A DNA stretch of 64,000 nt, taken from NCBI GenBank assembly GCA_964521715.1, contig CAZFSS010000001.1:26802-90801 (forward strand), given 5' to 3'. The stretch comes from an uncultured candidatus Brocadiaceae bacterium. Its GTDB lineage: Bacteria > Planctomycetota > Brocadiia > SM23-32. Positions within the stretch are counted from its first letter, which is position 1. Every line of letters begins with the position of its first letter. The notes beneath the pieces are model-generated. The model saw only the letters and a list, made by a program, of their open reading frames with translations. It searched no databases and was not told the DNA's origin. Of this stretch, positions 1,480 to 27,308 are shown in pieces. The position numbers and the translations under genes are program-made.

Positions 1480-1785
1480 ATGGAGCTCACGCGGGAAGAG
1501 CGCGAGTTGCTGGAGTCCTATCTCAAGATGAACGCGGATTACAGGGGCTGGATCGTCGGCGCGGTCGTGGGCGCGGCGATCTGCGCCGGGGCTCTGGTGG
1601 CGGCGTTCCTCAGGCTCCTGAACGTCCAGCCGGTCTACCTGCTGCTGGCCCTTATAGTCGGCATGGTTGTGGTCGAGCTCGCCCTGACTCGCCGCGACAA
1701 CACGTGCCTCGCGGGGATCCTCCAGAAGTACGACACGGAGGTCCGCCGGTTGAAGTATCCCGAGGAGGACGAGGAAACCGTCTGA
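1480..1785 (+). CDS. small membrane protein (hypothetical)
   Basis: ATG preceded by ggaggagcggcag (GGAGGAG Shine-Dalgarno, 6-nt spacing); two predicted TM helices; the track ORF begins at an upstream GTG (1450). Confidence 0.5.
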   Translation: MELTREERELLESYLKMNADYRGWIVGAVVGAAICAGALVAAFLRLLNVQPVYLLLALIVGMVVVELALTRRDNTCLAGILQKYDTEVRRLKYPEEDEETV

Positions 1786-1793
1786 GCCCGCCG

Positions 1794-6454: not shown

Positions 6455-7559
6455 GGGGGCCGCCTCCGCACGCGCGTTCCACGGCGGCGTCGAGCAGGGG
6501 GGCGACGCGGTCCCACCCGAACCGGCGCATCTCGGCGCTCAGGTCCACGGATCTCGCCTCGCCCGGACGCTCGATCCAGCGGACGAGCCGGGCCTTCAAG
6601 CCGTCCCTGTCCCCGTAGAGGCACGCATCGTGCCGGCCAGCCGGCAGCAGCTCCGGATAGCTCAGATCGTCCGGCAGAAGAGGCGCGCAGCCCGCATAGA
6701 CGGCTTCCACCACCGAGATGCCGAAGAACTCCTGCACGGCGGTCGACACGACGACGTCGCTTTCCAGCAGGAGCCGGCAGTACTCGGCGCGGGACTGCAC
6801 GTAGCCGAAACTCCTGATGCGGGGCGCAAGGCGCCGACGGGCCTCCTCGAAGATCGCCGGCGCCGTGCGGAACGTCTGGCCCGTGACGACGAGCCGGAAC
6901 TCGCGGCCCTCGTCCTGGAGTTCCATCATCAGGTCGAAGAACGTCTCGGCCCCCTTGTCGTACTCCCACCGGTGGTTCCACAGGATGCAGAGCGGGCCGT
7001 CCGGCGCTTTGGCCGAGCCGCGCTGGGCGTCGATGGACGCGAGGTCCACGCCCACGGGCACGACTTCCGAACGCTGCCTGATCCGCTCCGCCGCCCAGTC
7101 CGGCGCGTAATCCGGCATGCGTGCCAGCAGATGCCCCGCCGCCGCGAGGAAGCTCTCCATGTGGTAGCGCGAGTTGAAGAGCACGCGGTCGGCGGCCAGG
7201 CACGTCGTGATGTTCGTGAAGCCGAACTGATAGTCTCGCTCGTCCTCGCTCGGCAGGGGATAGGTGAGCTGGTTCTCGTGGAAGTAGGCCACACAGGGCA
7301 CGCCGCCCAGCAGTTCCGCCCGCGTGCCGAGGAGGGCGGCCAGGTCAAGGTAGTCGCTGACCAGCAGCGCGTCGAACGTGCCGCGCCGTTCGCTCAGGAG
7401 CTCCCCCATGGCCAGCGCCGCGCCCCGCATCCGCCACTTCCATTTGCGCGCCGGCATCGTGAGCAGATCGAGCCTGTGGCGGCTGTGCCCGCGATAGCCG
7501 TCCAGGAATGCCTGATGCGAGCCGCCGTAGTAGGGCTCCAGGGCGAGGACGCGCAGCAT
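6447..7559 (-). CDS. DUF3524-type glycosyltransferase (GT4-like)
   Basis: N-terminus MLRVLALEPYYGGSHQAFLDG is characteristic of DUF3524/GT1 proteins; C-terminal GT-B motifs (EFFGISVVEAVYAGCAPLLP); 8-bp overlap with the downstream BatA gene. Confidence 0.75.
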   Translation of the reverse strand: MLRVLALEPYYGGSHQAFLDGYRGHSRHRLDLLTMPARKWKWRMRGAALAMGELLSERRGTFDALLVSDYLDLAALLGTRAELLGGVPCVAYFHENQLTYPLPSEDERDYQFGFTNITTCLAADRVLFNSRYHMESFLAAAGHLLARMPDYAPDWAAERIRQRSEVVPVGVDLASIDAQRGSAKAPDGPLCILWNHRWEYDKGAETFFDLMMELQDEGREFRLVVTGQTFRTAPAIFEEARRRLAPRIRSFGYVQSRAEYCRLLLESDVVVSTAVQEFFGISVVEAVYAGCAPLLPDDLSYPELLPAGRHDACLYGDRDGLKARLVRWIERPGEARSVDLSAEMRRFGWDRVAPLLDAAVERACGGGPHG

Positions 7560-8060
7560 GGGGGCCCTTCGCTTCCATGAGGGAGTAGGCCAGTGGCAAG
7601 CCGCCTGAGCGCATTCTAAGCATCGCCGTCCGCCTGCGCAAGGCAGCGGGGGATGGGCCCGATCTGCTCCGTGAGCGAGTGCTGCTCGACCTCGCCCACG
7701 CCTGTCCTTCGGAGCTTGAGCGGAGTGGGATCGCCGCGGGCGCTCTTCGGCCCCTGGAGCGGAAAGGGGTTCGGCGGTTGGACCCCGGCGGTCCGGGAGC
7801 GCGAGCAGCAGATCCTGGCCGAGGCCCTCGGCCTCGAGCGCGGGGCTATGGCCGAGATCGAGGCGGCGCTGGAGGCCTCAGGCGCGGAGATACCTTAACC
7901 GCCGGCTCGAAGCGCCTGAGGCGTGGCTGCCGGGCGGTTGAACAGGCCTTGACAATAGGCCGTCTTAAGTATAGACTCCCGCGCGGTTGACACCGCAGAG
8001 CCTCACAGGTTGTTCCCGTGGGCCAGCGACGGGCTGACCCTTGACCGGCGAAAGGAGGGG

Positions 8061-9251
8061 ATGGAGATGTCCAGGTGCGGATGGAGGGTGTTGGTTGGCG
8101 TAGCGGTGGCCGCACTCGCAGGGACGGCTGTGCCCGCCAGGGCTAGCGTCGTGCTGCTGGACGAGTACTGGTCGCCCGAGATCATGGTGAACGACGTGAA
8201 GATGACGGAGGTCGACACCGAGGCGACCGGCGACCCCACACAGGCCGTGGCTGGCTACTTCAGCGCGAAGCTGGAGAACACGACCGGCGCACCTAACGTG
8301 CGTTTCCGCAACGCGGCCACCGTGCGGCCAGCCGACCTGCCGCCGGATGACACGGAGGCCAGGCTCTGGTACCGAACCGACAAGTGGAACGGCAAGATGG
8401 CGCTGGAGGTCTGGCTCTACGTTCCGTCGGCCGGCCGGCCCGTGCAGATGCTGACGGCCGAGCTTGACGGAGGCGGCGAGGCCGGCCGGCTGATCGCCGA
8501 CGACCGCTGGCACCTCGCGAAGGGGCTCCTCAAGAAGGGCACGGAGTATGACGTGGCCGCTGCAGAGACAGTGCCGACTGCCGCCTTCATCTGGCTGCGC
8601 CCGAGGGAGGGCTGGGACATCGCCCACACGACCTACGTCGACCGCATCGAGGCCGTCGTCGTCAGTGGGCCGGTGAAGGACAAGCCCATGCCGGCGCCCG
8701 CCCGCCGCGTCAGGCCCCTGCCGGGCGCCCAGATCAACGCGCCCGGGCTGGTCCTGATCGAGGGCGAGAACATTGCCAAGGACCCGTTCCCTCCCGGCAG
8801 CGCCTACCTGCCGGACTACGCCGACGAGCAGAGGCTGCTGAGCAACGGCGCGTGGCTTCAGTCAGCGGAGGTGCCCGGCGCGGTGGCCGCATGGCAGTTC
8901 AGCGTCGCCGACGCCGGCCGCTACGCGCTGTGGGCGCGCGGGTTCTGGTTCCGCGGCGGGTTCCGCTGGCGCGTGGACGGGGGCGAGTGGCAGACGTCCG
9001 GCCCGGACCGGAAGATCGTGAACGCGGTCCATTACCGGGACATCGATGCCGAGGCCTGGGGCCTGCCGGCGATCACCGTCGGCTGGACGCCGCTCGGGCA
9101 GGTCACGCTGCCTGAGGGCGAACACACGCTGGAAATCGAATGCACGGAGGACGCGCTCGGCTTCGCCTTCGACTGCTGGGTGCTGGCGCGGGACGCGTTC
9201 GCCGCGCCTGGTCCGGCAGCCGCGCCGTCGGGCGAAGCACAAGCGCCGTGA
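8061..9251 (+). CDS. secreted protein with C-terminal carbohydrate-binding-like beta-sandwich domain
   Basis: ATG after aaaggagggg RBS; signal peptide MEMSRCGWRVLVGVAVAALAGTAVPARA; Trp/Gly-rich C-terminal region (AWQFSVADAGRYALWARGFWFRGGFRWRVDGGEWQ) resembling CBM-type domains. Confidence 0.6.
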   Translation: MEMSRCGWRVLVGVAVAALAGTAVPARASVVLLDEYWSPEIMVNDVKMTEVDTEATGDPTQAVAGYFSAKLENTTGAPNVRFRNAATVRPADLPPDDTEARLWYRTDKWNGKMALEVWLYVPSAGRPVQMLTAELDGGGEAGRLIADDRWHLAKGLLKKGTEYDVAAAETVPTAAFIWLRPREGWDIAHTTYVDRIEAVVVSGPVKDKPMPAPARRVRPLPGAQINAPGLVLIEGENIAKDPFPPGSAYLPDYADEQRLLSNGAWLQSAEVPGAVAAWQFSVADAGRYALWARGFWFRGGFRWRVDGGEWQTSGPDRKIVNAVHYRDIDAEAWGLPAITVGWTPLGQVTLPEGEHTLEIECTEDALGFAFDCWVLARDAFAAPGPAAAPSGEAQAP

Positions 9252-9459
9252 CGCGCAGGCAGCAGCGGCCCGGTCGTGACCAAGGACGCGGGAGGCCAGG
9301 TGACGTGGAGTTCCGCAGGCGGGTCGCAGTAGGTGCCGCAGGTCCCGATCTCGCCGCAGCGTTTTGCGCGCCGTTGACGCTTCCGCCGCCCGGCGGTAAT
9401 CTCGGAGCCTCTCTGTGGACCGGGCTCATTCCCCTTCCGTGCGAGCAGGCGAGGGCCAC

Positions 9460-10656
9460 ATGGCAGCGATCCAAGTCAGCCCGAACGGGCGTTACTTCGT
9501 GGACGATCAGGGGGAGCCTTTCTTCTGGCTGGGCGATACCCAGTGGGAGTTGTTCCGTGCCTTCACGCCCGAAGACGCCAGGACCGTGCTGGAACGCAGG
9601 AGGCAGCAGGGGTTCACGGCCATACAGATCATGATCACCGGCGTAGGCGAGGGGAAGCTGCCGAACGTGGCAGGCGAGCGGCCGTGGCTCGGGGACGATC
9701 CGTCCTCCCCCAACGAGGCCTATTTCCGCAACGTCGACCGCGTGGTCGAAGCGGCATGTGAGCTGGGCCTGATCCTGGTCCCGGGCGTGTTCCACCAGTT
9801 GCAGCGTGCCTCGATAACCACAGCCAACGCCAGGCGGTACGCCGGATGGGTGGCAGAGCGCTACGCTGAAGTGCCCAACATCGTGTGGACGATGTACCCT
9901 GCGGCCCAGGACGAGTTCATCCCCGTCCTTCGCGAGCTGGCGGCGGGCCTGCAGGAAGGGGATGGCGGCACTCATCCCATCACCGTGCATCCCGATCCCT
10001 CGCCTGCGTCCTCGAGCTTCATCCACGATGAGGAGTGGCTGGACTTCAACATGATCCAGCCGTGGCAGCGGCCCGACCTGGTCTACAGCATGGTGAGGGC
10101 GGACTACGCGCGCACGCCGGTCAAGCCCGTCGTCATGGCGGAAGCATCTTACGAAGGCGTCCGCCACGGAAGGGTTAACACCCCTCTGCTGATCCGCCAG
10201 CAGGCGTATTGGTCCTATCTGGCGGGGGGCCACCACACCTACGGCAACGGGGGCAACTGCGACTCGCCCGGCACCTGGCGGTCCTGGATCGACTCCCCGG
10301 GAGCGCGCCACGTCGGCGTTTGCCGGCAGGTGCTGATGGGATTGAGCGAGTGGTGGGGCCTCATCCCGGATCAGTCGGTCTTCGCCGCCGGAGAAGGCAG
10401 CGGGGCGACGGTCAACATGGCGGCGCGTTCTCCGACAGGCGAGTGGGCGCTCGTCTACCTGAGCAGCAGCACGACGGTGTCGGTCCGGCTGGAGCGGGTC
10501 GCTGCCGGAGCCCCGATCGCCGCGTCGTGGATCGACCCCACGACCGGCGCAAGGACGGGAATCGGCGGCGTCCCGAGCACGGGGGTCGCGCCCTTCTCGA
10601 CTCCGAGCGGATGGGAGGACGCCCTGCTGTTATTTGAGCGACTGCCTGGCGGTTGA
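9460..10656 (+). CDS. DUF4038 domain protein (GH140-like glycoside hydrolase family)
   Basis: Motif GEPFFWLGDTQWELF near the N-terminus is the DUF4038 hallmark; TIM-barrel-like hydrolase; ATG at 9460 with gagggccac upstream (the track ORF starts at 9415). Confidence 0.8.
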   Translation: MAAIQVSPNGRYFVDDQGEPFFWLGDTQWELFRAFTPEDARTVLERRRQQGFTAIQIMITGVGEGKLPNVAGERPWLGDDPSSPNEAYFRNVDRVVEAACELGLILVPGVFHQLQRASITTANARRYAGWVAERYAEVPNIVWTMYPAAQDEFIPVLRELAAGLQEGDGGTHPITVHPDPSPASSSFIHDEEWLDFNMIQPWQRPDLVYSMVRADYARTPVKPVVMAEASYEGVRHGRVNTPLLIRQQAYWSYLAGGHHTYGNGGNCDSPGTWRSWIDSPGARHVGVCRQVLMGLSEWWGLIPDQSVFAAGEGSGATVNMAARSPTGEWALVYLSSSTTVSVRLERVAAGAPIAASWIDPTTGARTGIGGVPSTGVAPFSTPSGWEDALLLFERLPGG

Positions 10657-12054
10657 GCCGGAGACGGTCGGCAGCCTCTTCGCCGCGTCGTCGAGGACCA
10701 GCACCCAGTCGTCCTGCTCGCCGCAGGAAGGCGGGGTGAACTCCTGCACGCCCGTGTTCGCGTACTCGCCGATGCGGTCCCAGCCGCCCGTGCGCGGATC
10801 GTACCAGTGAGCGACGACCCGGCCGCCGGAGATCCTGTCCAGGCGGGCGCTGAACGGGTTCCCGAACGGAGAGTACGCAAGGGCGAAGCTGCCATCCTCG
10901 GCACGGGCGGACTGGACGTGATCCTCCAGGGGCCCCTGGATTGACGCGACGATGCCCTGATCCGGAACCATGCGGTGCCAGGGCCGCAACTCCAGGAGCC
11001 TGCGCATGTAGCCGATGCCGAAGGCGCCCGCGCAGTCCATGGCCTCGCGCCAGTTCATGCTGGGCGACAGATCCCCCTGGAGGTACGAGTAGTCAACGGA
11101 TGAGAGCCGGGGATTATCGGCCTCGTAGAATTGCCACATCTCCCACGCGCCGTACCCGTTGCCGGCGGCGCCGGCCAGCATGTTCCAGTAGGCCGCTTCC
11201 CGGACCTGGTGTGCGTCTATGCGCTTCTTGCCCGCCGTCCAGGAGAAGATGGGCGGATGGTTCTCATAGCGGGTCTCCATGTCCAGCGTGGGCTTGGCGG
11301 GCGTGAGGTTGTAGTCGTGCGTGATGAACTCGTAGTTGAGGGTGCCCCACGCGTGGCTGGACTGGATCGCGTTGAAGTCGAGCCAGTCGGCCTCGTGGAA
11401 CCAGAACGAAGAGGAATACCCGACCACGCCCGGCGCGGGGCCGGGCCCGTGGTAGGAGACAAGGTGGGCGCCCGCGCTTCCCTCCTTGAGGCCCCCGGCA
11501 ATGGCGGCCCACACCGCCTCGTATCCGGCGGGCGACCGGTCGCCGCCAAGGAACCAGACGACGGCGTTCTGCCTGTAGCGACTGCCCAGGAACCTGCCGA
11601 AGGCGGATGCGTTGGACTCGGTCAGGACCTGCTCGTCGAGGCCGCCCTTGCGCACATGCTCGCCGGAGTTGGTCACGATGCCCATCACCAGGCCGAGCTC
11701 GTTCGCGCGGCTGACGATGTAGTCCACGTTCTCGAAGAACGCCTCGTTCGGCCGGGCGGGGTCGCCGTCCACGAGCGTAAGGTCGCCGTAAAGGTTCGGC
11801 GCCTTCAGGCCGCGCAGCATGTAGGCCTGGATGACCGTAAAGCCCTTGGCCGCGCGGTTCGTCAGGTACGCGTCCACTTCCTCATGGTTCAGGCGCTTGA
11901 ACAACTGCCAGCCGGTATCGGCGAGATAGAGGAACGGCCTGCCACTGTCGGTGACGAAGTGCCGGCCGTTGGAGCTGACTCTCAGCCGCATGCCTTTGAC
12001 CGAACCGGACGCCGGGAAGAGGGGACTCCCAGGCTTCTCCAAGGGCGTTGACAT
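10630..12054 (-). CDS. DUF4038 domain protein (GH140-like), paralog of 9460..10656
   Basis: Motif GRPFLYLADTGWQLF; strong RBS (caggaggaaccgtcATG); 3' end overlaps the convergent paralog by 27 bp. Confidence 0.8.
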   Translation of the reverse strand: MSTPLEKPGSPLFPASGSVKGMRLRVSSNGRHFVTDSGRPFLYLADTGWQLFKRLNHEEVDAYLTNRAAKGFTVIQAYMLRGLKAPNLYGDLTLVDGDPARPNEAFFENVDYIVSRANELGLVMGIVTNSGEHVRKGGLDEQVLTESNASAFGRFLGSRYRQNAVVWFLGGDRSPAGYEAVWAAIAGGLKEGSAGAHLVSYHGPGPAPGVVGYSSSFWFHEADWLDFNAIQSSHAWGTLNYEFITHDYNLTPAKPTLDMETRYENHPPIFSWTAGKKRIDAHQVREAAYWNMLAGAAGNGYGAWEMWQFYEADNPRLSSVDYSYLQGDLSPSMNWREAMDCAGAFGIGYMRRLLELRPWHRMVPDQGIVASIQGPLEDHVQSARAEDGSFALAYSPFGNPFSARLDRISGGRVVAHWYDPRTGGWDRIGEYANTGVQEFTPPSCGEQDDWVLVLDDAAKRLPTVSGSTARQSLK

Positions 12055-12099
12055 GACGGTTCCTCCTGATGTGATCTGCGCTCTCCAGAGCAGGCGGGC

Positions 12100-13050
12100 T
12101 CAAACGGCCCACTTCGGATCAGGCCGAAGGCGGGCCAGCTCGCCGGCCAGACCCTCGCAGGCCCGCACGTAGTGCGCGTCGCCAAAGACCCGCACGTGCA
12201 GCAGCATCGTATTGAGCCAGTAGACGCGGCAGCGCACGTCGAACCCGTCGCGAAGGGCGTGGCAGCGGGCGTACTCGCGGAAGAAGGGCGCCCCCGCCGT
12301 GTTGAACACCAGCAGGTAGGCCAGCTCGTACTCGACGTCGCAGCAGTCGGCGCCGCCGTCCACGAAGCCGCTGATCCGCGCCCCGCCCGGGCCCGCCGGC
12401 TCGACGATGATGTTCGTTGCCCAGAGGTCGCCGTGGACGAGCGTCGGCTCGCCGGACTCGGGCAGCCATTGGTCCAGGTGCTCCAGCACGTCCGTTATGG
12501 CGGTCCGGGCTTGGGCGGTGAGGCGCCCCGCCACCGAGTCGAACTCCCTGCGGATCCGCGGGCCGAAACGGTCGAGCCATCGCGGTGTGCCCCGGTCCTC
12601 CGGCTCCAGGGCGCTGCCGTAGGTGGCGCGGCGGTGCTCGTGCAAGTCCGCCAGTATGCCGGCCATCTCGCGCTCGACCGCCGCCCGCTCGCCGGCCGCG
12701 AGCCGGGCGTGCCCCAGGTTGGTGCCGGGCAGGCGCTCCATCAGCAGGCAACTGCCGCGAAAGATACGCCCGGACGTGTCAGCGCCGTACGGCTCAGGCA
12801 CAGGGAAGCCGGTGTTGGCCCGATACCACCGCAGCACGCGGCATTCCCACTCGAAGCCGGCGTGTCCCGGCTCGGAAGAGAGCTTCGCGACGATCTTGCG
12901 CGGCTCTCCGTCGGTGGTCAGCTCCAGCACGCTGTTGACCATCCCGCCGTGGAGCCGGTCTATGGCCGTCACGGTGAGGGGGCGGCCGACGAGGGCGCGG
13001 ACAAGCTCCGTGGCGGACTCCCGGGATATCGTGGTGGTGTCGAAGACCAT
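12100..13050 (-). CDS. fructosamine/ketosamine-3-kinase family protein (aminoglycoside phosphotransferase fold)
   Basis: Motifs LHGGMVNSV, PTLVHGDLWATNIIV and FVDGGADCCD typical of the fructosamine kinase / APH family. Confidence 0.8.
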   Translation of the reverse strand: MVFDTTTISRESATELVRALVGRPLTVTAIDRLHGGMVNSVLELTTDGEPRKIVAKLSSEPGHAGFEWECRVLRWYRANTGFPVPEPYGADTSGRIFRGSCLLMERLPGTNLGHARLAAGERAAVEREMAGILADLHEHRRATYGSALEPEDRGTPRWLDRFGPRIRREFDSVAGRLTAQARTAITDVLEHLDQWLPESGEPTLVHGDLWATNIIVEPAGPGGARISGFVDGGADCCDVEYELAYLLVFNTAGAPFFREYARCHALRDGFDVRCRVYWLNTMLLHVRVFGDAHYVRACEGLAGELARLRPDPKWAV

Positions 13051-13193
13051 GCTGCCGTTCCGGTCGGCGCTGTCAGAGCCAGTGGCGGGCCGGAGTCTAC
13101 ACGGCCTGGGGCGCAGTGCGCAAGTCGAGGCCCCGGAAGAGCGTCCACGTGGTGCACAATGTTTCCCATAAAGCCCGCATGTCGGCCCCGAAT

Positions 13194-19180: not shown

Positions 19181-19314
19181 GCGCGTCCCGCCATGCTGGC
19201 AAGTGCGATCCGCTTTCGTAGGGGCACGGCGCGCCGTGCCCCTACCTCACGGAGCCAAAGGCGGCCTGCCCGGAAGCTCGGTGTTGAAGTTCCAGCGGGA
19301 ACCTGGCATTGCGT

Positions 19315-20566: not shown

Positions 20567-21583
20567 ATGATCAGGGTCGGAATCATAGGGCTGGGGGGCA
20601 TGGGCAACATGCATCTGGGCTGCTACGCCGCGGTCCAGGGCGCCGAGGTCGTGGCCGTGGCGGACATACGGGAGGAGAGGCTCCACGCCGGCCAGACCTC
20701 CCAGCAGATCAACATCGGCGCGGGCGGCGGCAGGCTCGATCCCGAGAAGCAGAAGCTCACCACGAACGCCGACGAGCTCATTGACGATCCGGACATCGAC
20801 ATGCTGGACATCTGCCTGCCGACGTTCCTGCACGCCGAGCACTGCAAGAAAGGGCTGCAAGCCGGCAAGCACGTCCTATGCGAGAAGCCGATGGCGCTCA
20901 CGCACCGCGAGTGCGAAGACGTGCTGAAGGTGGTCCAGGACGCCCCCGGCAAGCTGATGATCGCCCATTGCGTGCGGTTCTTCCCGGCCTACGAGTACCT
21001 GAACGAGGCGATCGAGTCCGGTCGGTTCGGCCGGCTGCTTGAGCTGTCCATGTGGCGGGGGGGCTCGCCGCCGCGCTGGTCGTGGGAGAACTGGCTCCTG
21101 AACCACGTGCGCAGCGGCGGCGGCATGCTGGACCTGCACGTGCACGACGCGGACTTCGTCCACCACGTGCTGGGCAGGCCGCGCGCCGTCTGCTCCACGG
21201 GAGCCGTGGGACCCAGCGGGGGCTACGACGCAGTGGACACCCAGTACGTCTACGAGGACAAGATGGCCGTGCGCGCCGGGGCCAACCTGGCGCTGCCGAC
21301 CGGCTTCGGCTTCGAGGCACACTTCCTGGCGGCCTTTGAGAAGGGGTGCCTGCGGTTCAGCACCGCCGAGCACGACGGGCTGATGGAGATCACCGACGAG
21401 GGCACCAGTCATCCCGGCCTGCCCGAGAAGAACGGCTACCAGGAGGAGATCGCCTACTTCGTGAGATGCATCCAGAACGACGAGGTCCCGGCCGTCGTTA
21501 CGCCCGAGTCAAGCGCCTTCTCCGTCAGGCTGATCGAGGCGGAGAGGGAATCCATCGAGACGGGCCGCTCCGTGGCGCTCTGA
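20567..21583 (+). CDS. Gfo/Idh/MocA family oxidoreductase
   Basis: Rossmann N-terminus MIRVGIIGLGGMGNMH, motif EKPMAL; GGAGG RBS 8 nt upstream. Confidence 0.9.
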   Translation: MIRVGIIGLGGMGNMHLGCYAAVQGAEVVAVADIREERLHAGQTSQQINIGAGGGRLDPEKQKLTTNADELIDDPDIDMLDICLPTFLHAEHCKKGLQAGKHVLCEKPMALTHRECEDVLKVVQDAPGKLMIAHCVRFFPAYEYLNEAIESGRFGRLLELSMWRGGSPPRWSWENWLLNHVRSGGGMLDLHVHDADFVHHVLGRPRAVCSTGAVGPSGGYDAVDTQYVYEDKMAVRAGANLALPTGFGFEAHFLAAFEKGCLRFSTAEHDGLMEITDEGTSHPGLPEKNGYQEEIAYFVRCIQNDEVPAVVTPESSAFSVRLIEAERESIETGRSVAL

Positions 21584-21601: not shown

Positions 21602-21835
21602 CACGGCCATCCACCACGGAGACACTGAGAACACGGAGAACGGCAACACCAGGATAAACCACTACGACACGACGAGCACAACGCAGTAATACAGGCTGTA
21701 ACGCCGTGCTCGTTGTGCCGTTGTGGTTGGCTCTCTCTGGTGCGCCGTGTTTCTGCTGTTTGTCGTTCGCCGAGGTCCCTGCCGTCTCTGCCGTTCTCGG
21801 TGCTCTCCGTGTCTCCGTGGTGAGATGTTGTCAGG
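21602..21835. repeat. copy 1 of a ~230-bp imperfect direct repeat flanking the R-M islet
   Basis: Aligns with 24373..24657 (shared cacggcca...cactgaga(c)acggag..aacggcaac..aaccactacgacacgacga.cacaacg.agtaat.caggctgtaacgccgtgctcgttgtgccgttgtggtt...ccgtctctgccgttctc.gtg.tctccgtggtg.gatgttgt); contains internal inverted repeats; coordinates approximate. Confidence 0.7.
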
Positions 21836-22151
21836 CTTCGGCCGCGCGCGCCAGGTTGAGCTCCAGCAGCTTCTCCAGTATCTCCTCGTCCGTGGTGTCG
21901 GGCTTCCAGGCCGGGTCGCCCGTCGTCGCCGCGTAGGCCGCGCAGACGGCCCCGTCCAGCTTCGCGTGTGCGTTGCGCAGCCAGGTGGGCGTCTCGTTGT
22001 AGAGGTTGGTGAGGGTCCGCTTCTTGAGGGCCTTCGCGAACGGCGGGTCCGGGACGGTGCGGGGATAGCGGACCGTGCCGATGCCGTTCTGGTCCGCGTC
22101 ATAGACGTACCGGGCCCAGGGGCCGTCTACGGAGCCGGGGAATTGGAGCAC
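21831..22151 (-). pseudogene. C-terminal remnant of a Type IIL/IIG (MmeI-like) or BREX PglX-like DNA methyltransferase
   Basis: 106-aa ORF with the characteristic C-terminal motif of these large methyltransferases: NLYNETPTWLRNAHAKLDGAVCAAYA...TDEEILEKLLELNLARA; far too short to be complete. Confidence 0.6.
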
Positions 22152-22223
22152 TTCCGCGACGGTCCACTCGGGCGGGTTGAGCCAGCGCTCGCGCAGCTCG
22201 TTCAGTTCCCGTGCGGCGAGTGT

Positions 22224-22857
22224 CTACGGCCCAATGCCGATGATGACGAGTGGGACGGGAGGGTTGTTGCGCCCGTGGCGCATTATGTTGTAGACCTCCC
22301 CCTCGAAGTACGCGATGCCGGTGGACATCAGGCGGCCGCCCTCGGGATCGCTCATCATCGCTTTCACCGGGAGAATCTCTATGCCGACGTCGATGATGCC
22401 GCCGGCGTAGAATAGCAGATGCTTGACGAACAGGTCGTAGGCGACAAACGCGTACTTGCCGAACTGTACCTCGATGGCGATTTGGTCCTTGACGAAGTCG
22501 GTCTGTTTATACGACAGGATCGGCTTCGTTACGCCGTGCTCCTCAAGGAACCTCTTCTGGTCGTCAAGGGACAGGTTCACAACTTGCTCTAACAGCTTGC
22601 GGTCAGTCGTCACGTAGTACTCGTACCGGACGCCCTGCCAGCCAGCGGCCTCGGGCCCGACTTGCGAAGCCGGCGTTCAACATGTGCGGGCTGTACAGCC
22701 TCTTCCCCTTCATCGTTTTCTCTTCGCTTACCTTCGTGCGGCACTGGTCGGCGTGTACCTGCGCGATCACGCAGTTGATTTCCCCGTAGAGACTCCGATG
22801 GTGTACGAGAAGGAACTCCTCGCCGTTCAGGTGCGAGTATACTTCGACTATCCTCAC
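22224..22857 (-). pseudogene. BglII/BstYI-family type II restriction endonuclease, split by a frameshift
   Basis: The 84-aa ORF (22603..22857, MRIVEVYSHLNGEEF...) and 129-aa ORF (22224..22613) are in different frames. The C-terminal part (KPILSYKQTDFVKDQIAIEVQFGKYAFVAYDLFVKHL...IDVGIEIL) aligns with the BglII catalytic core (DFLGTDIDFGKRDTLVEVQFSNYPFLL). Combined length of about 213 aa matches BglII (223 aa). Confidence 0.65.
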
Positions 22858-22899
22858 TGTTGGGGTCCCTCCCCGGCGGCCTGGCTTCGTCTATGATGT

Positions 22900-23793
22900 T
22901 TATGTGTCGAACAGAGAAGACGTCCGCGTGTTGCTGGCGGGCTCTTTCGGCTTGTATATGGGCTTATTCATCGGCCGAACGCGAAGTCTGCCCGCAGCCG
23001 CGGCCCTTATGCGTTCCTCCGCGATGTCGATGTACTCCTTCACTATCTCCGCACCGTGGCCGCTGCGCGCATGGCGCACAGCCGCAACGATCGTCGTCCC
23101 GACCCCAGCAAACGGATCGAAGACGGCATCCCCCGGACGAGTCATGGACAGCACGAGCCGCTCTACGAGGCCCACGGGGAACTGGCACGGATGCGCAGTC
23201 TTCTCCACATGGTTGCTCTTGACGTTCGGAATGTCCCACACGTCGCCGGGGTTCTTCCCCCGCGGGTCGCAGGAGTACTCGCCTGCCTTCGAGCCCTTGA
23301 AGTACTTCTTGCCAGGGTACTTCTGCGGGACGCGCACGGGGTCGAGATCGAAGAAGTAATCGTCGGTCTTCGTGTACCACACGATGGTCTCGTACCGGCC
23401 GGAGAAGCGGTTCTTGCAGTGCAGTCCGTGACCGAAGCGCCACACAATGCGGTTGCGCATCTTCAGACCTAAGTCCGCGAAGACCGGGTACAGCAGGGAG
23501 TCCACCGGGACGATCGCGCCGTTCTTCACATAGTTGCCGACCTGCCAGCACAGGCTGCCGTTCGGGCGCAGCACGCGCACGCACTCCGAGATGACCTGGC
23601 GCTGCTGGTCGGCGTAGCTGTCGGGGTCGATCCTGCTCTCGTACTCTTTGCCGATGTTGTACGGGGGCGAAGTAACCACAAGCTGGATGCACTCCGTCGG
23701 CATGGTGGAGAGCATCTCCAGGCAGTCCCCGTGGTACAGAGTGACAACGTTGTCGACGTGGAACGACTGAGCTATCTCGACTTGCCTGAGCAT
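22900..23793 (-). CDS. beta-class DNA methyltransferase (N4-cytosine/N6-adenine, M.BglII-like)
   Basis: Motif IV TSPPY N-terminal to motif I DPFAGVGTT (beta-class order); LYHGDCLEML N-terminus; ATG at 23791-23793 with GGAGG RBS 7 nt upstream; appears full length. Confidence 0.85.
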   Translation of the reverse strand: MLRQVEIAQSFHVDNVVTLYHGDCLEMLSTMPTECIQLVVTSPPYNIGKEYESRIDPDSYADQQRQVISECVRVLRPNGSLCWQVGNYVKNGAIVPVDSLLYPVFADLGLKMRNRIVWRFGHGLHCKNRFSGRYETIVWYTKTDDYFFDLDPVRVPQKYPGKKYFKGSKAGEYSCDPRGKNPGDVWDIPNVKSNHVEKTAHPCQFPVGLVERLVLSMTRPGDAVFDPFAGVGTTIVAAVRHARSGHGAEIVKEYIDIAEERIRAAAAGRLRVRPMNKPIYKPKEPASNTRTSSLFDT

Positions 23794-24371
23794 TCCGGCA
23801 CCTCCGAGCGCTCGGCGTTCTGCAAACGGATCGGCGTCCATTCTACCGTTCCCGTCGGCGAAAGCAACCTGCCCAACGCCGGCGCAGGCCAGGATGCTGA
23901 GCGCGGATCGGGCAGCTTGGAGAGGCGTATCTCGTGGACCTCGACGGGCGTGGCGGTGAAGTTCGTGCGGACGATGATGCGGTCCATGTCGGACACGACG
24001 AGGAGGGGCGGGTTCTCGAGGTCCTCGCGGTACTGGAGGAGCTGATCGTAGGCGGCGTCGAGGTCCTTGTGCTTGCCCTTGTGTTCCCAGGCGAAGAAGC
24101 CCTTCTTCCATACGTCGGCCCAGTCGTCGCCGCCGCCGTGCTTGGCGGCCCCCTTCTCGAAGGTGAACTACTCGCCGGTCGGGTCGGCCTCGGCGGGCTT
24201 GGGGTGGTCGACGAGCTCGCAGAGGTCGAGGAAGTGCTGCTGGGAGGCGGAGCGCTCCGAGAGATCGGCGGTGCCCCACTTCTGGATGAACCGGACGGCG
24301 TCCATGCGGATTGTGCCCTCCTCACTCCGGGCAACCCCGTGAAAGGTAACAGAACCGGCGGCCGGGGTCAA
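23772..24371 (-). pseudogene. N-terminal remnant of the same Type IIL / PglX-like DNA methyltransferase, with in-frame TAG
   Basis: Conserved N-terminal signature of MmeI/PglX-like enzymes: FIQKWGTADLSERSASQQHFLDLCELVDHPKPAEADPTGE*FTFEKGAAKHGGGDDWADVWKKGFFAWEHKGKHKDLDAAYDQLLQYREDLENPPLLVVSDMDRIIVRTNFT. The TAG at 24168-24170 replaces the Trp codon found in intact homologs; the reading frame ends at 23772. Confidence 0.6.
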
Positions 24372-24372
24372 T

Positions 24373-24657
24373 CACGGCCAGGACGGCACACCACTGAGAC
24401 ACGGAGGACACGGAGAACGGCAACGATGGGGTTAACCACTACGACACGACGAACACAACGAAGTAATGCAGGCTGTAACGCCGTGCTCGTTGTGCCGTTG
24501 TGGTTAGCTCATTCTGGTGGGCCGTCTCTCTGTTGTTCGTCGTTGCCCCAGGTATCTTCCGTCTCTGCCGTTCTCCGTGTGCTCCGTCCGGCCTTCGTAG
24601 CCGAAGCCACTTCGGCGGAGTAGGCTGTCTCCGTGGTGGGATGTTGTTGGGGGGGAC
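24373..24657. repeat. copy 2 of the ~230-bp direct repeat (carries an extra ~40-bp hairpin-containing insertion)
   Basis: Aligns with 21602..21835; extra segment ccggccttcgtagccgaagccacttcggcggagtaggctg containing the hairpin gccgaag-ccac-cttcggc; the repeat abuts the mutS stop codon (24657-24659); coordinates approximate. Confidence 0.7.
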
Positions 24658-27308
24658 TAACGGCTTTCGCGGTTCTGCTTGAGCCGCTCGATGATGTCGT
24701 TGAGCTTGTTGAGCGCTTCCAGCGGCGTCATGCCGCTCGTGTCGAGCGCGAGGAGCTCGTCCCTGACCTCCGCGTCGAGCGGCTTGAACAGCGGCATCTG
24801 GAGGTGGCGGGGCTCGGGGCCGCCAGCCCTCCTGTCGGCGGTCGACGGCTGCCTGGGGGCGAAGCGCGGCTCGTCGTTGGGCCCGACGGCGTTCTCCTCC
24901 AGGTGCTGAAGGATGTCCCGCGAGCGCTCGAGCACTTCGGCCGGCACTCCCGCCAGCCTGGCCACGTGGATGCCGTAGCTGCGGTCCGTTGCGCCAGGGA
25001 CGACGCGGTGCAGGAAGACGACCTCGTTCTGCCACTCGCGCACGGCCACGTTCAGGTTGCGCACGCCCTCGCAGACCTGTGCGAGTTGGGCCAGCTCGTG
25101 GTAGTGGGTGGCGAAGAGCGTTCTGGCGCCGATGCGATCGTGGACGTATTCGCCGGTGGCCCAGGCGATGCTGACGCCGTCGAAGGTGCTCGTGCCGCGG
25201 CCGACCTCGTCGAGGATGATGAGGCTGCGGTCGGTGGCGCTGTTGAGGATGTTGGCGACCTCGATCATCTCGACCATGAAGGTGCTCTGGCCCCGGCGCT
25301 GCTCGTCGCTGGCGCCGACGCGGGTGAAGATGCGGTCGACCAGGCCGACGGTCGCCTCGGCCGCCGGCACGAAGGAGCCAATCTGGGCCATCAGGACGAT
25401 GAGGGCCGTCTGCCGGATGTAGACGCTCTTGCCGGACATGTTCGGGCCGGTGATGACGAGAAGGCGCACCTGCTCGCCGTCCATCTCGATGTCGTTGGGC
25501 ACGAACTGCTCGTCCAGGATCCGCTCCAGCACGGGATGGCGCCCGTCCCTGATGCGCAGCGTGCGGTCCGCGGTCAGCGTGGGACGGACGTAGCCGTTCT
25601 CGTCCGCAACCGTCGCCAGCGAGACGAGCACGTCCAGGGCGGCCAGGGCTTCCGCCGTCCTCTGGAGCCTTTCGGTGTGCGAGCTGACTTGCTGGCGGAC
25701 CTGCTGGAACAGCTCGTATTCCAGCTCCTTGGCCCGCTCGCCCGCGCCCAGCACGGCGGACTCGCGATCCTTCAGCTCGGGCGTGATGTAGCGCTCGGCG
25801 TTCTTCAGCGTCTGCTTGCGGATGTAGTGCGCGGGCACCTTGTCCCGGTGGGTGTTGGTCACCTCGATGTAGTAGCCGAACACCTTGTTGAAGCCGACCT
25901 TGAGCGAGGGGATGCCGGTCCGTTCGGCCTCCTTTGCCTGGAGGTCGGCGATCCAGGTGCGGCCCTGGCGCCCGGTGCCGCGGAGCTCGTCGAGCTCCGG
26001 GTTGAATCCGTCCCGGATGATGCCGCCTTCCGTGATGACGGCGGGCGGGTCCGCCTTGATGGCGGAGGCGATCAGCCCTTCGACTTCGGGGATGGGGTCA
26101 ATGGCGGCGACCAGGTCCGCCAGCATCTGCGAGCCGACGCCGGCCGACTGCTCCTTCAGCTTGGGCAGGCGCGACAGGGATCGCCCCAGGGCGACCAGGT
26201 CCCGGGCGCCGGCGCGGGCGCAGTAGATCTTCGTCGTCAGCCGCTCGATGTCGTAAATGCTTTTGAGCTCGTTGCTTAGCGCATGGCGGCGAGGGCGGTT
26301 GCCGTGCAGTTCGGCCACGGCGTCCAGGCGCCGCTCGATCTCGTCGGCCTGGCGCAGGGGCGTAAGGAGCCAGCGCCTCAGGAGCCGCGCGCCCATCGGC
26401 GTGGACGTCCTGTCCAGCATTTGCAGGAGGCTGCCCTCCTGGCCGGCGCCGCGTATGGTATGGATGAGCTCCAGGCTGCGTTGCGTCGTGCTGTCGAGGA
26501 TCAGGTAACGCTCGCTGGCGAAGGGCTCTATCTTGCGGATGTGCCCGAGCGTGGTCTTCTGGGTCTCCTGCAGGTAGCAGAGCAGGGCGCCCGCGGCCCC
26601 GAGCGCCGGGCCCATGCCTTCGCATCCGAAGCCGTCCAGGCTGCGCGTGCCGAAGTGCCCGTTCAGCCGCCGCCGCCCGTCTTCCTGGTTGAACTCCCAC
26701 GGCGGGCGGCGCGTGATGAGGCAGCCCTCCGGCAGGCGCGCCCGGGGGGAGAGGCCGTCGCCCTCGTCCTCGCGCTCGACGCGGGGCAGGAGGCACTCAG
26801 CGGGCGAGACGCGCTGCAGGCTGTCGCCGACCGCCTCGGGGGGCACTTCTTCAACCTCGAACTTGCCGGTCGAAAGGTCGACCCAGGCCAGTCCGGCCCT
26901 GGCGTCGCCGAGCGCGACGGCCGCCAGGAAGTTATTCGAGCGGCTGTCCAGCAGGTGATCTTCGGTCAGCGTGCCGGCGGTGATAACGCGCGTGACGTCC
27001 CGCTCCACGAGCCCGGTGGCCTCCGCCGGATCCTGCACCTGCTCGCAGATGGCGACGCGGTGTCCGGCCCGGATCAGGCGCTTGATGTAGTTCTCGGCTG
27101 CGTGGTGAGGGAAGCCGGCCATGGGCACGGCGTTCTCGCCTTTCTCGCGGCTGGTCAGGGCCAGGCCGAGGTCGCGCGCGCAGACCTGCGCGTCGTCGAA
27201 GAACACCTCGTAGAAATCCCCCATGCGGAAGAGCAGGATGGCGTCCTGGTGCCTTTTCTTGAAGGCCAGGTACTGCTTCATCACGGGTGTATGGGCCGGT
27301 TTCGCCAT
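24657..27308 (-). CDS. mutS: DNA mismatch repair protein MutS
   Basis: N-terminal TPVMKQYLAFKKRH...LLFRMGDFYE, Walker A GPNMSGKS, ST..DE; full-length (~884 aa) MutS1; ATG at 27306-27308 preferred over the upstream TTG track start. Confidence 0.95.
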   Translation of the reverse strand: MAKPAHTPVMKQYLAFKKRHQDAILLFRMGDFYEVFFDDAQVCARDLGLALTSREKGENAVPMAGFPHHAAENYIKRLIRAGHRVAICEQVQDPAEATGLVERDVTRVITAGTLTEDHLLDSRSNNFLAAVALGDARAGLAWVDLSTGKFEVEEVPPEAVGDSLQRVSPAECLLPRVEREDEGDGLSPRARLPEGCLITRRPPWEFNQEDGRRRLNGHFGTRSLDGFGCEGMGPALGAAGALLCYLQETQKTTLGHIRKIEPFASERYLILDSTTQRSLELIHTIRGAGQEGSLLQMLDRTSTPMGARLLRRWLLTPLRQADEIERRLDAVAELHGNRPRRHALSNELKSIYDIERLTTKIYCARAGARDLVALGRSLSRLPKLKEQSAGVGSQMLADLVAAIDPIPEVEGLIASAIKADPPAVITEGGIIRDGFNPELDELRGTGRQGRTWIADLQAKEAERTGIPSLKVGFNKVFGYYIEVTNTHRDKVPAHYIRKQTLKNAERYITPELKDRESAVLGAGERAKELEYELFQQVRQQVSSHTERLQRTAEALAALDVLVSLATVADENGYVRPTLTADRTLRIRDGRHPVLERILDEQFVPNDIEMDGEQVRLLVITGPNMSGKSVYIRQTALIVLMAQIGSFVPAAEATVGLVDRIFTRVGASDEQRRGQSTFMVEMIEVANILNSATDRSLIILDEVGRGTSTFDGVSIAWATGEYVHDRIGARTLFATHYHELAQLAQVCEGVRNLNVAVREWQNEVVFLHRVVPGATDRSYGIHVARLAGVPAEVLERSRDILQHLEENAVGPNDEPRFAPRQPSTADRRAGGPEPRHLQMPLFKPLDAEVRDELLALDTSGMTPLEALNKLNDIIERLKQNRESR

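Follow-up and report, generated by a model that had tools for sequence, protein, structure and literature searches.

Two copies of a modular extragenic inverted-repeat element, probably from a dispersed Planctomycetota family, flank a decaying restriction-modification islet in a Brocadiaceae genome

Repetitive extragenic palindromic (REP) sequences and bacterial interspersed mosaic elements (BIMEs) are present in tens to thousands of copies per genome. The Correia elements of Neisseria, the enterobacterial repetitive intergenic consensus (ERIC) sequences and the bacterial elements that resemble MITEs (miniature inverted-repeat transposable elements) measure 100-250 bp, possess long terminal inverted repeats and occupy intergenic regions, where they are co-transcribed and yield hairpins that are processed or stabilise the mRNA; Correia elements, in particular, are accompanied by a TA target duplication and exist as hundreds of near-identical copies per genome. 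The attC sites of integrons and of clusters of attC sites lacking integron-integrases (CALINs) are imperfect palindromes in direct orientation that bracket single accessory genes, are alike within a genome and contain a conserved unpaired position. The GTAG- and CGTC-tagged REPs are palindromes of 20-40 bp, with stems of 5-13 bp and loops of 2-20 nt (Di Nocera et al., 2013, PMC3733652). Restriction-modification (R-M) genes, for their part, define a class of 'insertion with long target duplication' that is recognised by the presence of both restriction and modification functions, an insert shorter than 20 kb, a flanking repeat longer than 30 bp and a single repeat at the empty site (Furuta et al., 2010, PMC2853133). 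Here we analyse two ~230-bp direct repeats that bracket the remnants of R-M genes, between mutS and an oxidoreductase gene, in a 64,000-nt stretch of contig CAZFSS010000001.1 from an uncultured candidatus Brocadiaceae bacterium (hereinafter, the window). Each repeat is probably a non-coding, modular extragenic inverted-repeat element of the REP/BIME or Correia kind and a member of a family that is dispersed over Planctomycetota.

A BLASTN alignment joins positions 21612-21810 of the first copy with 24389-24587 of the second over 199 nt without a gap (85.4% identity, E = 3e-62), and a tail of 22 nt is shared as well (21810-21831 and 24626-24647, 95% identity). With the common start CACGGCCA included, copy 1 extends over 21602-21831 and copy 2 over 24373-24647; a global alignment of the two yields 87% identity over 231 aligned nt. 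The copies are, accordingly, direct repeats that are 85-87% identical, and there is no third copy within the window. A preliminary description of this DNA had pointed to the pair and quoted three long identical runs, all of which are indeed present in both copies. Copy 2 alone contains 39 additional nucleotides, at about 24588-24625, that fold into a small hairpin of their own (GTAG-CCGAAG-CCA-CTTCGG-C), have no other occurrence in the window and have the look of a small REP of the GTAG type, inserted into the outer stem once the repeat had been duplicated. In each copy, an outer stem of ~34 bp encloses an inner stem of ~26 bp, with a 59-nt spacer on one side of the inner hairpin; the arm of the outer stem is made of three ~9-nt CAC-n-GAG units and the arm of the inner hairpin of three CAC-n-ACG units. 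The parts of the two copies are as follows.

21602-21831, no strand assigned: copy 1, whole element, in the gap between the oxidoreductase stop codon (21583) and the stop codon of a fragment encoding an MmeI_C domain (21831-21833).
21612-21647, plus strand: copy 1, outer 5' arm, CAC-CACGGAGA-CACTGAGAA-CACGGAGAA-CGGCAAC, with three CAC-n-GAG units and a period of 9 in Tandem Repeats Finder.
21657-21685, plus strand: copy 1, inner 5' arm, AACCAC-TACGA-CACGACGAG-CACAACG, with CAC-n-ACG units.
21702-21729, plus strand: copy 1, inner 3' arm, CGCCGTGCTCGTTGTGCCGTTGTGGTT, containing a 22-mer that is exact in 12 other Planctomycetota loci.
21730-21788, plus strand: copy 1, pyrimidine-rich spacer from the inner hairpin to the outer 3' arm, 78% identical between the copies.
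21789-21822, plus strand: copy 1, outer 3' arm, TGCCGTTCTCGGTGCTCTCCGTGTCTCCGTGGTG, the inverted-repeat match to 21612-21645.
24373-24647, no strand assigned: copy 2, whole element, with the mutS stop codon (24657-24659) on one side and, on the other, the start region of a Type IIG gene remnant (minus strand, ATG at 24305).
24389-24424, plus strand: copy 2, outer 5' arm, from inverted-repeat and unit-pattern searches.
24434-24462, plus strand: copy 2, inner 5' arm.
24479-24506, plus strand: copy 2, inner 3' arm.
24566-24638, plus strand: copy 2, outer 3' arm, interrupted by the 39-nt insertion.

The ability of the nested inverted repeats to fold, which had been proposed at the outset, is borne out by comparison with dinucleotide shuffles: on both strands of both copies, the native fold is more stable than any of 200 shuffles (0/200), with z-scores from -4.9 to -9.2. 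The predicted free energies are -117 kcal/mol on the plus strand and -128 kcal/mol on the minus strand for copy 1 (z of -7.7 and -9.2) and -136 and -127 kcal/mol for copy 2 (z of -4.9 and -5.9). The inner stem, in which aaccac..cacaacg pairs with cgttgtg..gtggtt, is exactly as first described. The terminal stem had been given as 15 nt, exact in copy 2 and with one mismatch in copy 1: it is exact in copy 2, but copy 1 shows two mismatches (TGCCGTTCTCGGTGC versus TGCCGTTCTCCGTGT), and the stem actually reaches ~34 nt, with 21612-21645 of copy 1 pairing with 21789-21822 at 91% complementarity. Conservation follows this architecture, the arms being 86-96% identical between the copies and the spacers 38-78%; the least conserved parts of copy 1 are the spacer at 21730-21788 and the 8-nt linker at 21648-21655 (38%).

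The repeats do not encode protein. None of the frames stays open through the two copies, the gapless block has 29 differences that are distributed over the codon phases as 12/9/8, and transitions are about as numerous as transversions; frames, phase and substitution pattern together rule out a coding sequence or a small peptide, and with it the possibility, considered in the preliminary description, of a simple segmental duplication of coding DNA. Copy 2 does contain an ATG-initiated open reading frame (ORF) of 66 aa on the plus strand (24426-24626, MGLTTTTRRTQRS…AVLVVPLWLAHSGG…) that resembles a signal peptide and is closed by TAA in copy 1; it is probably a by-product of an AC-rich arm being followed by a GT-rich arm. 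Each copy starts directly after a stop codon, as had been remarked, if the minus strand is read: the mutS stop codon (24657-24659) is 9 nt away from copy 2, and copy 1 at its end overlaps the stop codon (21831-21833) that closes the 106-aa MmeI_C fragment.

That these repeats belong to a dispersed family is indicated by the recurrence of their arms. The 22-mer CGTGCTCGTTGTGCCGTTGTGG of the inner 3' arm is found, without a mismatch, at seven loci in six Planctomycetota genomes, mostly of Pirellulales and including the chromosome of Lacipirellula limnantheis, and on five metagenome contigs (such loci, and those of closer relatives, are denoted by L numbers). The contexts are intergenic and unrelated to one another, for example, between groES and groEL in one case and upstream of prmC in another. 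The outer palindromes that enclose the inner hairpin are of at least four kinds with quite different sequences, namely the CGCCAAGG-type, the CGCRAAGG-type and the CGCGGAG-type, along with the CACGGAG-type of the window, and further hairpins in these loci are of like build with other units. Because the inner arm also occurs solo (L003, L004 and L009) and tail-to-tail (L005 and L008), the arm rather than the hairpin has to be considered the basic module of the family.

The arms obey a simple grammar, three units of 8-10 nt, each consisting of C-R-C, one base, a triplet (ACG, GAG, AAG or GAT) and then 1-3 bases. A strict regular expression for this pattern matches 57 sites in 263 kb of sampled loci (these are loci, not complete genomes), compared with 0.57 expected from order-3 Markov simulations, the maximum of which was 3; independently of the regular expression, Tandem Repeats Finder detects a period of 8-9 nt in every arm. 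The dinucleotide AC directly precedes 56 of 67 arms, and in the lineage of the window this is often extended to TCTCAC. All elements are intergenic, and none of about 13 that could be scored lies in a gap between divergent genes. At L001, a nested hairpin of the family (~266-494) fills the 228-nt gap between groES and groEL, genes that are normally tightly co-transcribed, so that the element is not a strict terminator there. The searches produced no matches to the repeat in annotated plasmids or phages, and the searchable literature (on Planctomycetes repeats, on MITEs and on the raw motifs) yielded no description of these elements; the element, which we file as an extragenic-palindrome variant outside any named family, is apparently undescribed.

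What is conserved in the arms appears to be the sequence itself. Nine distinct inner hairpins, which come from the window, from L013 and from seven further loci, were aligned; 83% of the cells pair, 18 of the 30 pairs are invariant, and one column never forms a standard pair. The covariation check that had been suggested for these stems found no signal above shuffles (0.078 versus 0.073 in shuffled alignments, a value that was reached by 196 of 500). Triplets of CAC and ACG in alternation make up the invariant columns, and the single bases between these triplets vary freely, often with mismatches and without compensation, which together with the position that is never paired implies constraint on the sequence of each arm and not on the helix. 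Such constraint suggests, in turn, that the arms are probably read in a sequence-specific manner by a protein.

The comparison with REPs and BIMEs supports an affinity in organisation but not in sequence. As in those elements, the location is extragenic, downstream of genes in tandem or convergent gaps; both orientations occur, as do singletons and head-to-head and tail-to-tail pairs; modules are combined into mosaics, the inner hairpin being placed in different outer palindromes and interleaved with GTAG palindromes at L019; variants are specific to lineages; and the hairpins are proposed to form at mRNA 3' ends. By contrast, the unit here is a non-palindromic arm of 26-36 nt with three C-R-C-n-X-Y-Z units and no GTAG or CGTC tag, the stems are 26-34 bp, the loops 18-128 nt, the hairpins are nested, and there is no known link to a REP-associated tyrosine transposase (RAYT), no gene for which was seen within the islet or called at the examined loci. 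Small GTAG-type palindromes also exist in their own right in this genome, at 19218-19245 and 24597-24616. The first of these is a perfect 28-nt palindrome, GTAGGGGCACGGCGCGCCGTGCCCCTAC, that resembles GTAG-tagged REPs, lies between convergent genes for a nucleoside hydrolase and lpxK and occurs once in the window; near-identical copies are located in the mutS-oxidoreductase spacer of L019. Classification as a CGTC-tagged REP, an idea that comes from the CCGTCGTG start of the 3' arm in the relatives, was rejected given that such REPs have stems of 8-9 bp and loops of 4-5 nt, and a reading of the units as CsrA (GGA) or Shine-Dalgarno-like sites was dropped given that the ACG-type arms lack them. 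With Correia and ERIC elements, the repeats share length, long terminal inverted repeats, intergenic location, the long hairpin fold and the capacity to flank genes; they differ in the lack of a target duplication, the low copy number in the lineage, the unrelated internal sequences between genomes and the periodic sub-repeats of the arms.

Several observations weigh against the assignment to a family of the REP/BIME or Correia kind. The copy number in the lineage of the window is low, with two copies in 64 kb and, over some 175 kb of DNA from relatives, a density of strict arms of roughly one site in 90 kb. Neither a protein that binds the element nor a transposase or recombinase was identified, and no relative carries a single, solo copy at the mutS-oxidoreductase site. 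The hairpins are not followed by a U-tract, the GC-rich stem of either copy differing in this from an intrinsic terminator (consensus scan), and a role of the hairpin at the RNA level would be a pure analogy with the known elements. Finally, the sharing of exact 22-mers across classes may in part reflect the low complexity of the unit pattern.

The local setting of the pair is that of a small defence islet. The window encodes LpxK and MutS, and the closest named relatives of the latter come from 'Candidatus Brocadiia' and Planctomycetota metagenome-assembled genomes. The plus-strand gene that adjoins copy 1 and ends at 21583 encodes a Gfo/Idh/MocA oxidoreductase, which is convergent with mutS, and the islet of 2.5 kb is situated between the two. 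On the minus strand, the order is mutS, copy 2, the N-terminal remnant of a Type IIG gene, a Type II methyltransferase, a split BglII-like endonuclease, C-terminal Type IIG remnants and copy 1.

24657-27308, minus strand: mutS, core gene flanking the islet, 883 aa.
23898-24305, minus strand: Type IIG N-terminal remnant, aa 1-136, 83% identical to the L013 protein.
22900-23841, minus strand: Type II N6/N4 DNA methyltransferase, likely start at ATG 23841 or 23793.
22224-22857, minus strand: BglII-like Type II restriction endonuclease in two ORFs (22603-22857 and 22224-22613), by frameshift or sequencing error.
21837-22217, minus strand: Type IIG (MmeI-family) C-terminal remnants, aa 850-911 with a frame change, plus an MmeI_C ORF.
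20567-21583, plus strand: Gfo/Idh/MocA oxidoreductase, core gene flanking the islet, start approximate and inferred from 338-aa orthologs.

The content of R-M remnants and the GC content between the copies (56-62% versus 68% for the window) indicate that the repeats bracket a small, decayed defence islet. The fragment next to copy 1, which was initially named as the C-terminus of PglX, scores best as a Type IIG/MmeI protein and not as PglX of the BREX system. About 2.1 kb of the Type IIG/MmeI-family gene (aa ~137-849) have been replaced by the Type II methyltransferase and the BglII-like endonuclease, and both of the old ends remain, so that one R-M system has overwritten another in place (21837-24305, minus strand). 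The endonuclease is split across frames at ~22603-22613, and the islet may now amount to a solitary methylase; the idea that the N-terminal part of MmeI is fused in frame to the methylase was considered and refuted by BLASTP and tblastn. Between copy 2 and the Type IIG start (24343-24371, minus strand) there is a TTGACC, a 17-nt spacer and a TACCTT, followed by GGAGG 11 nt before ATG 24305; the TTGACC/TACCTT motif is kept in L013 (GATTGACC…TTCTGTTACCTTTC) and is a candidate promoter for the R-M gene, placed directly downstream of the hairpin.

Relatives allow the history of the site to be read in outline. At L013, where MutS is 88% identical to that of the window, mutS is followed by element A, a nearly intact Type IIG gene of ~3 kb (924 + 70 aa), element B and the oxidoreductase gene, and at L014 (MutS also 88% identical) an element begins directly after mutS, shortly before the end of the contig. 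More distant relatives (MutS 75-79%) contrast with this: the mutS-oxidoreductase spacers of L015, L017 and L020 (17, 74 and 98 nt) contain no element. The databases offer no closer relative with an empty site. From the arrangement at L013 and the lack of the element in the distant relatives, it follows that the element-gene-element unit was acquired in an ancestor that the window genome shares with L013. The islet started out as one Type IIG gene, the unit predates the split from the relative with 88% MutS identity, and the Type II pair replaced the ~2.1 kb later, in the lineage of the window. The Type IIG gene of L013 (13000-15968) is itself split into 924 + 70 aa, with full-length homologs of ~980 aa, and may be decaying in that lineage too. 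That the hairpin travels with a mobile Type IIG cassette can be rejected, three homologs (70-74% identity) being located in unrelated contexts that lack the element. The slot is also occupied at L019, by a 405-nt spacer (6705-7109) with a different hairpin of like architecture along with GTAG-type palindromes. That triple-unit hairpin pairs GGACAGGAT-GAACAGGAT with CCCATCCTG-CCTATCCTG-TATATCCTG, and its 3' arm and tail are triplicated in tandem, in units of ~130 nt that also bear the GTAG palindromes; the contig of L018 breaks within the same array.

The two copies have apparently not evolved independently. Within genomes, alignment scores are 248 for the window pair (87% identity) and 123 for the L013 pair; all cross-genome pairs score 30-60, whereas the neighbouring stretches of 600 nt in mutS and in the oxidoreductase gene are 87-89% identical between the window and L013. 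In addition, the inner hairpin (arms and loop) is inverted between the window and L013 with respect to the flanking genes, with the same orientation in both copies of each genome. The greater likeness of copies within a genome than between positional orthologs and the shared flipped hairpin suggest gene conversion, a single flip followed by conversion between the direct repeats being the most economical account.

How do the rival explanations fare against these findings? That the repeats are MITE-like non-autonomous transposons, with the arms as terminal inverted repeats that contain subterminal transposase-binding repeats and with the R-M gene caught between independent insertions or moved as a composite, is unlikely, even if several observations speak for it. 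The long terminal inverted repeats (34-nt arms, 91% complementary), the similarity of the copies over their full length, the dispersal of the family over non-syntenic sites, the common outer termini NAC|CRC (often TCTCAC|CAC) of different arm types, the solo and tail-to-tail arms that resemble decayed or abutting ends, and the accessory genes of L020 and L022 that are likewise bracketed by arms all agree with such a transposon. However, neither copy, nor the whole unit, is accompanied by a target-site duplication, there being no direct repeat in the sequences on either side of copy 1 (…GTCCCCGC / CAGGCTTC…) or on either side of copy 2 (…GGGTCAAT / TGGGGGGG…); a transposase is neither present in the islet nor called at the related loci; the internal sequences are unrelated between genomes; both L013 copies occupy exactly orthologous positions and yet differ internally from the window copies; and the three close Type IIG homologs are not flanked by the element. 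Of the MITE proposed early on for this DNA, there thus remains a dispersed family of inverted repeats in many unrelated intergenic sites; neither a target-site duplication nor an autonomous partner nor a high copy number in this genome could be demonstrated, and membership in the class is not established given that the arms also occur singly and tail-to-tail.

Could the pair instead be a plain long target duplication of unique intergenic DNA, produced when the R-M gene was inserted, with a sequence of no wider significance? As in the class of Furuta et al., a small R-M unit without a mobility gene lies between core genes and is flanked by long direct repeats, and three of the four criteria fit, namely the restriction and modification functions, an insert below 20 kb and a repeat above 30 bp; moreover, the outermost flanks of the pair are mutually complementary, as if one palindrome had been duplicated whole. 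The decisive fourth criterion fails, the available islet-free sites being either free of the repeat (L015, L017 and L020) or filled by a different element (L019). The repeat, furthermore, is not unique DNA, its arms recurring in many unrelated Planctomycetota loci, and the copies are 13-15% diverged yet have common derived features, which requires later homogenisation. We therefore deem this explanation quite improbable; in the terms of that classification, the locus could equally be a 'chance insertion between repeated sequences' (PMC2853133).

The accessory genes next to the arms raise the question of attC-like cassette recombination sites, at which a site-specific recombinase would insert single accessory genes and leave one copy on each side. 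In the sampled DNA from the lineage of the window, each site with strict arms has an accessory gene beside it, namely the R-M islet (in the window and at L013), a kinase-like gene at L020 and, at L022, a GNAT gene that adjoins another Type IIG gene. At L020 (8170-9335), a gene for a 216-aa P-loop kinase-like protein follows lpxK and is flanked by an 85-nt direct repeat that consists of the loop end, a CACGGAT-type 3' arm and a 35-nt tail, the upstream copy being a complete hairpin; a homolog of this gene with 73% identity belongs to an integron-like same-strand array at L028 with GCCTAAC…GTTAGGGC sites. This link of elements to accessory genes is suggestive but weak, because L022 was chosen for its Type IIG gene, because three close Type IIG homologs have no element and because homologs of the L020 gene elsewhere lack such arms. 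Not far from the theme of arrays, the L021 contig contains at least 10 tandem 55-nt units (GGTGGTTGTGGT…GGACGCCACGGAGGGCGTCC…, 7968-8540), downstream of another Type IIG gene and with an assembly gap inside; the array looks like a satellite-like cluster of small hairpins.

The contig L024, of 70% GC and from a viral collection, is a same-strand gene array with a hairpin in most of its gaps, four in all, and with 12 strict arms in 13.8 kb (at 1600-13100); it encodes a GT2 glycosyltransferase and methyltransferases, and no phage hallmark was found among its genes. A Shine-Dalgarno leader and then a start codon come after three of the four hairpins and also after a fourth, lone arm, and the leader is near-identical in three of these four cases (GTGAGAnCGCCGTTT…GGAGAGGAGGTGC). 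A GT-rich arm at 8227-8249 seems to specify the hydrophobic N-terminal residues of a lipoprotein-like protein (…VVLVVSSWLILPGC); a translated hairpin that encodes a signal peptide was rejected, the coding signature starting only after the hairpin, so that any overlap with the beginning of the coding sequence is confined to the 3' arm.

Direct copies, which are imperfect palindromes, around single accessory genes at three independent loci, greater likeness within than between genomes, as among chromosomal attC sites, a stem position that is unpaired in all nine hairpins, the L024 array and the homolog in the array of L028 are all compatible with recombination sites of the attC or CALIN kind. 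At the ends of the elements, too, there is some resemblance: in the window and L013, the R'-like end agrees with the core at 6-7 of 7 positions, and in the two copies of the window the R''-like end does so at 5-6 of 7 (GTTGGCT, GTTAGCT, GTTAGAC; GGTTAAC, GATAAAC). Against this, the R''-like end of L013 lacks AAC, the attC cores are absent from the Pirellulales members, and across the members in general the cores RYYYAAC (R'') and GTTRRRY (R') are either missing or not consistent. The stems lack an unpaired central spacer, the whole elements (~230 nt) and several of the inner hairpins are longer than the 57-141 nt that is usual, no tyrosine recombinase was seen near any locus and no integrase accompanies the elements, some elements lie between core genes (groES and groEL, for instance), and the genuinely attC-like sites of L028 are devoid of triple-unit arms. 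The chances of this explanation accordingly seem poor.

The remaining possibility, and the one with which the preliminary description began, concerns RNA. At gathering thresholds, Rfam has no matches in the entire window, so that the scan that had been called for names no family, and a permissive search retrieves only miRNA-precursor models at ~25 bits, against gathering scores of 87-98, that is, hairpin noise; neither a tRNA nor a tmRNA is present anywhere in the window, the islet has no integrase, and a consensus scan detects no promoter-like or terminator-like site at either copy. A structured small-RNA gene in each copy, or a pair derived by an integrating element from the duplicated end of such a gene, could draw on the very stable folds of both strands and on the conservation of the arms over distant lineages, but is largely refuted, and now extremely improbable, in view of these negatives, the lack of covariation, the occurrence of the family in both orientations, without synteny and as solo arms, and, for the duplicated 3' end of an RNA gene as an integration target, the islet-free sites that lack the sequence.

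A scenario that accommodates the assignment to a family of extragenic inverted repeats could run as follows. The pair would have arisen upon entry of the R-M gene, either through duplication of a resident element (a long target duplication) or through Campbell-type recombination of an incoming circular DNA that carried a copy with the resident one. Gene conversion between the direct repeats would then keep the two copies alike in each genome, and selection would act on the arm sequence, that is, on the C-R-C and X-Y-Z triplets, and not on base pairing. When transcribed from the upstream gene, the element would fold into a long hairpin at the 3' end of the mRNA or between cistrons that, as in REP/BIME and Correia elements, might block read-through and exonucleases and so insulate the inserted gene.

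A more far-reaching and, we stress, speculative and rather unlikely possibility is that the triple-unit arms (N-A-C followed by three repeats of C-R-C, one base, X-Y-Z and 1-3 bases, where X-Y-Z is ACG, GAG, AAG or GAT) are recognition arrays of a dedicated Planctomycetota protein, be it a recombinase or transposase or an RNA- or DNA-binding factor, and belong to a phylum-wide system that marks, and perhaps mediates, the insertion or exchange of single accessory genes such as those for R-M, kinase-like, GNAT and glycan-modification functions. If true, this would be a functional analogue of the integron attC or REP-RAYT systems with a new sequence grammar.

The local role of the repeats is thus explained, two copies of a dispersed element flanking a decaying R-M islet, and it is the grammar of the family that is unusual. 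For annotation, its recognition prevents such hairpins from being taken for small-RNA genes, att sites or ORFs for signal peptides, and the locus itself is a clear example of the overwriting of one R-M system by another in place. The mobile and regulatory non-coding DNA of Planctomycetota is poorly charted, and because the grammar is simple and searchable, cataloguing of the family in complete genomes is feasible. The family probably shapes transcript ends and operon polarity in Planctomycetota. Since three independent loci have accessory genes beside the element, it may also flag or favour places where defence genes turn over.

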